From contig DATGXF010001204.1 in NCBI GenBank assembly GCA_035299165.1, positions 1 through 32,038 on the forward strand: a DNA stretch of 32,038 bases, written 5' to 3'. Below, a report on this DNA, generated by a model with database tools, continues. Source of the stretch: Candidatus Deferrimicrobium sp. Lineage in GTDB: Bacteria > Acidobacteriota > Aminicenantia > UBA2199. The letters are not shown here.

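Follow-up and report, generated by a model that had tools for sequence, protein, structure and literature searches.

The short acidic F-x-F tail that ends NRPS-1, NRPS-2 and the B12-type radical SAM protein (rSAM) of the window also closes, as D-F-x-F, proteins of the Peptidase_U32 family with a length of ~390 aa. These are found in six of the compared loci (L008 11991-13160, L019 11804-12970, L023 11697-12899, L061 11772-12962, L084 2288-3469 and L085 5991-7160), where the gene lies with the rSAM on one side and a subunit opening with the half-C domain on the other. The oxygen-independent hydroxylases UbiU and UbiV are members of the Peptidase_U32 family. Because they share this family, the tailed proteins are candidates for anaerobic hydroxylases that dock on NRPS lines.

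The rSAM itself occurs with additional domains. Some close homologs (P0002, P0003, P0005, P0008, P0048 and P0050) carry a CDGSH-type zinc-finger/iron-sulfur motif (PF09360), exemplified by CSCGRTKTPPYCDHSH in the N-terminal extension of P0002 (L159 10001-10120); the window rSAM lacks this motif. In P0192, residues 1-350, N-terminal to a tail-bearing rSAM, resemble a PP-loop ATPase with an SGGVDSS motif, without confirmation by Pfam. A free 373-aa protein ending in GDFGF (L147 2841-3962) shows only weak, subthreshold matches to PP-loop Pfam families. Among natural fusions of the rSAM, three kinds were observed: a single-chain B12-rSAM-half-C-A-T protein devoid of the tail (P0193, 2077 aa; P0197, 1377 aa), an rSAM-C-like subfamily with the active-site motif HRAxAD and C-terminal F-x-F tails (P0225-P0262 and P0270, ~1000-1230 aa), and a full C domain joined to the rSAM in one protein (P0190).

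Radical SAM and B12-binding units are also built into the NRPS chains. In one arrangement, an A domain is interrupted ~100 aa past its start by a unit of ~580 aa with permuted order, the radical SAM part coming first and the B12-binding part second (L049 6361-11970, aa 380-970; L027 11725-20493, aa 1400-2005; also L039, L042, L055, L056, L071 and L075). This is an "interrupted A domain" that carries a radical SAM enzyme. In another, half-C and A domain flank a ~700-aa unit with B12-binding and CxxxCxxC elements, to which both are fused in cis (L013 4045-9930, aa 235-915; L061 12974-17581; L016 2-4720; L099 5891-9703; L152 5727-9674).

The A-domain codes of NRPS-2 (4377-25985) read, in order, Thr, Ser-like, Thr, DAETTGEVTK, Gly-like and Thr. 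The DAETTGEVTK domain is followed by an E domain, as is the A domain of NRPS-1 with its related code DAEHIGEVTK; the codes of these two D-configured positions are not known to correspond to any particular substrate. Directly upstream of a stand-alone C-tail protein in the Bacteroidetes locus L008, sugar-type genes are located (3753-8501; GFO/IDH/MocA oxidoreductase, ROK kinase, DegT aminotransferase and HAD hydrolase), which hence suggest an amino-sugar or unusual starter unit.

A half-C can also stand alone, as a 260-aa protein ending in DDDFEF (L030 9201-9983). Since it is flanked by a tail-bearing rSAM on both sides, followed by a half-C-A-T-C subunit, it may act as an adaptor. In a variant from Saprospiraceae and Chitinophaga (L051 6114-7835 and L060 9950-11680), the rSAM and the upstream protein alike end in F-I-F, and in the downstream subunit a full C domain (aa ~58 onwards) takes the place of the opening half-C. 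A second type of C|A split, in which the terminal C domain closes with DDLENE(F/G) or SSKLEED and the following subunit has no half-C but an A domain at its very start (L004 ~20506, L029 ~5633, L037 ~6794 and ~18839, L159 ~19165), may constitute a separate docking class. The same cluster type further contains a classical, COM-like junction (L159 2207/2233), where an E-terminated subunit ends in TPSDFGYKELSMEQLYSIFDE and the next begins with MALKELTKENIKDIYTLSPMQEG. The docking elements differ between junction types.
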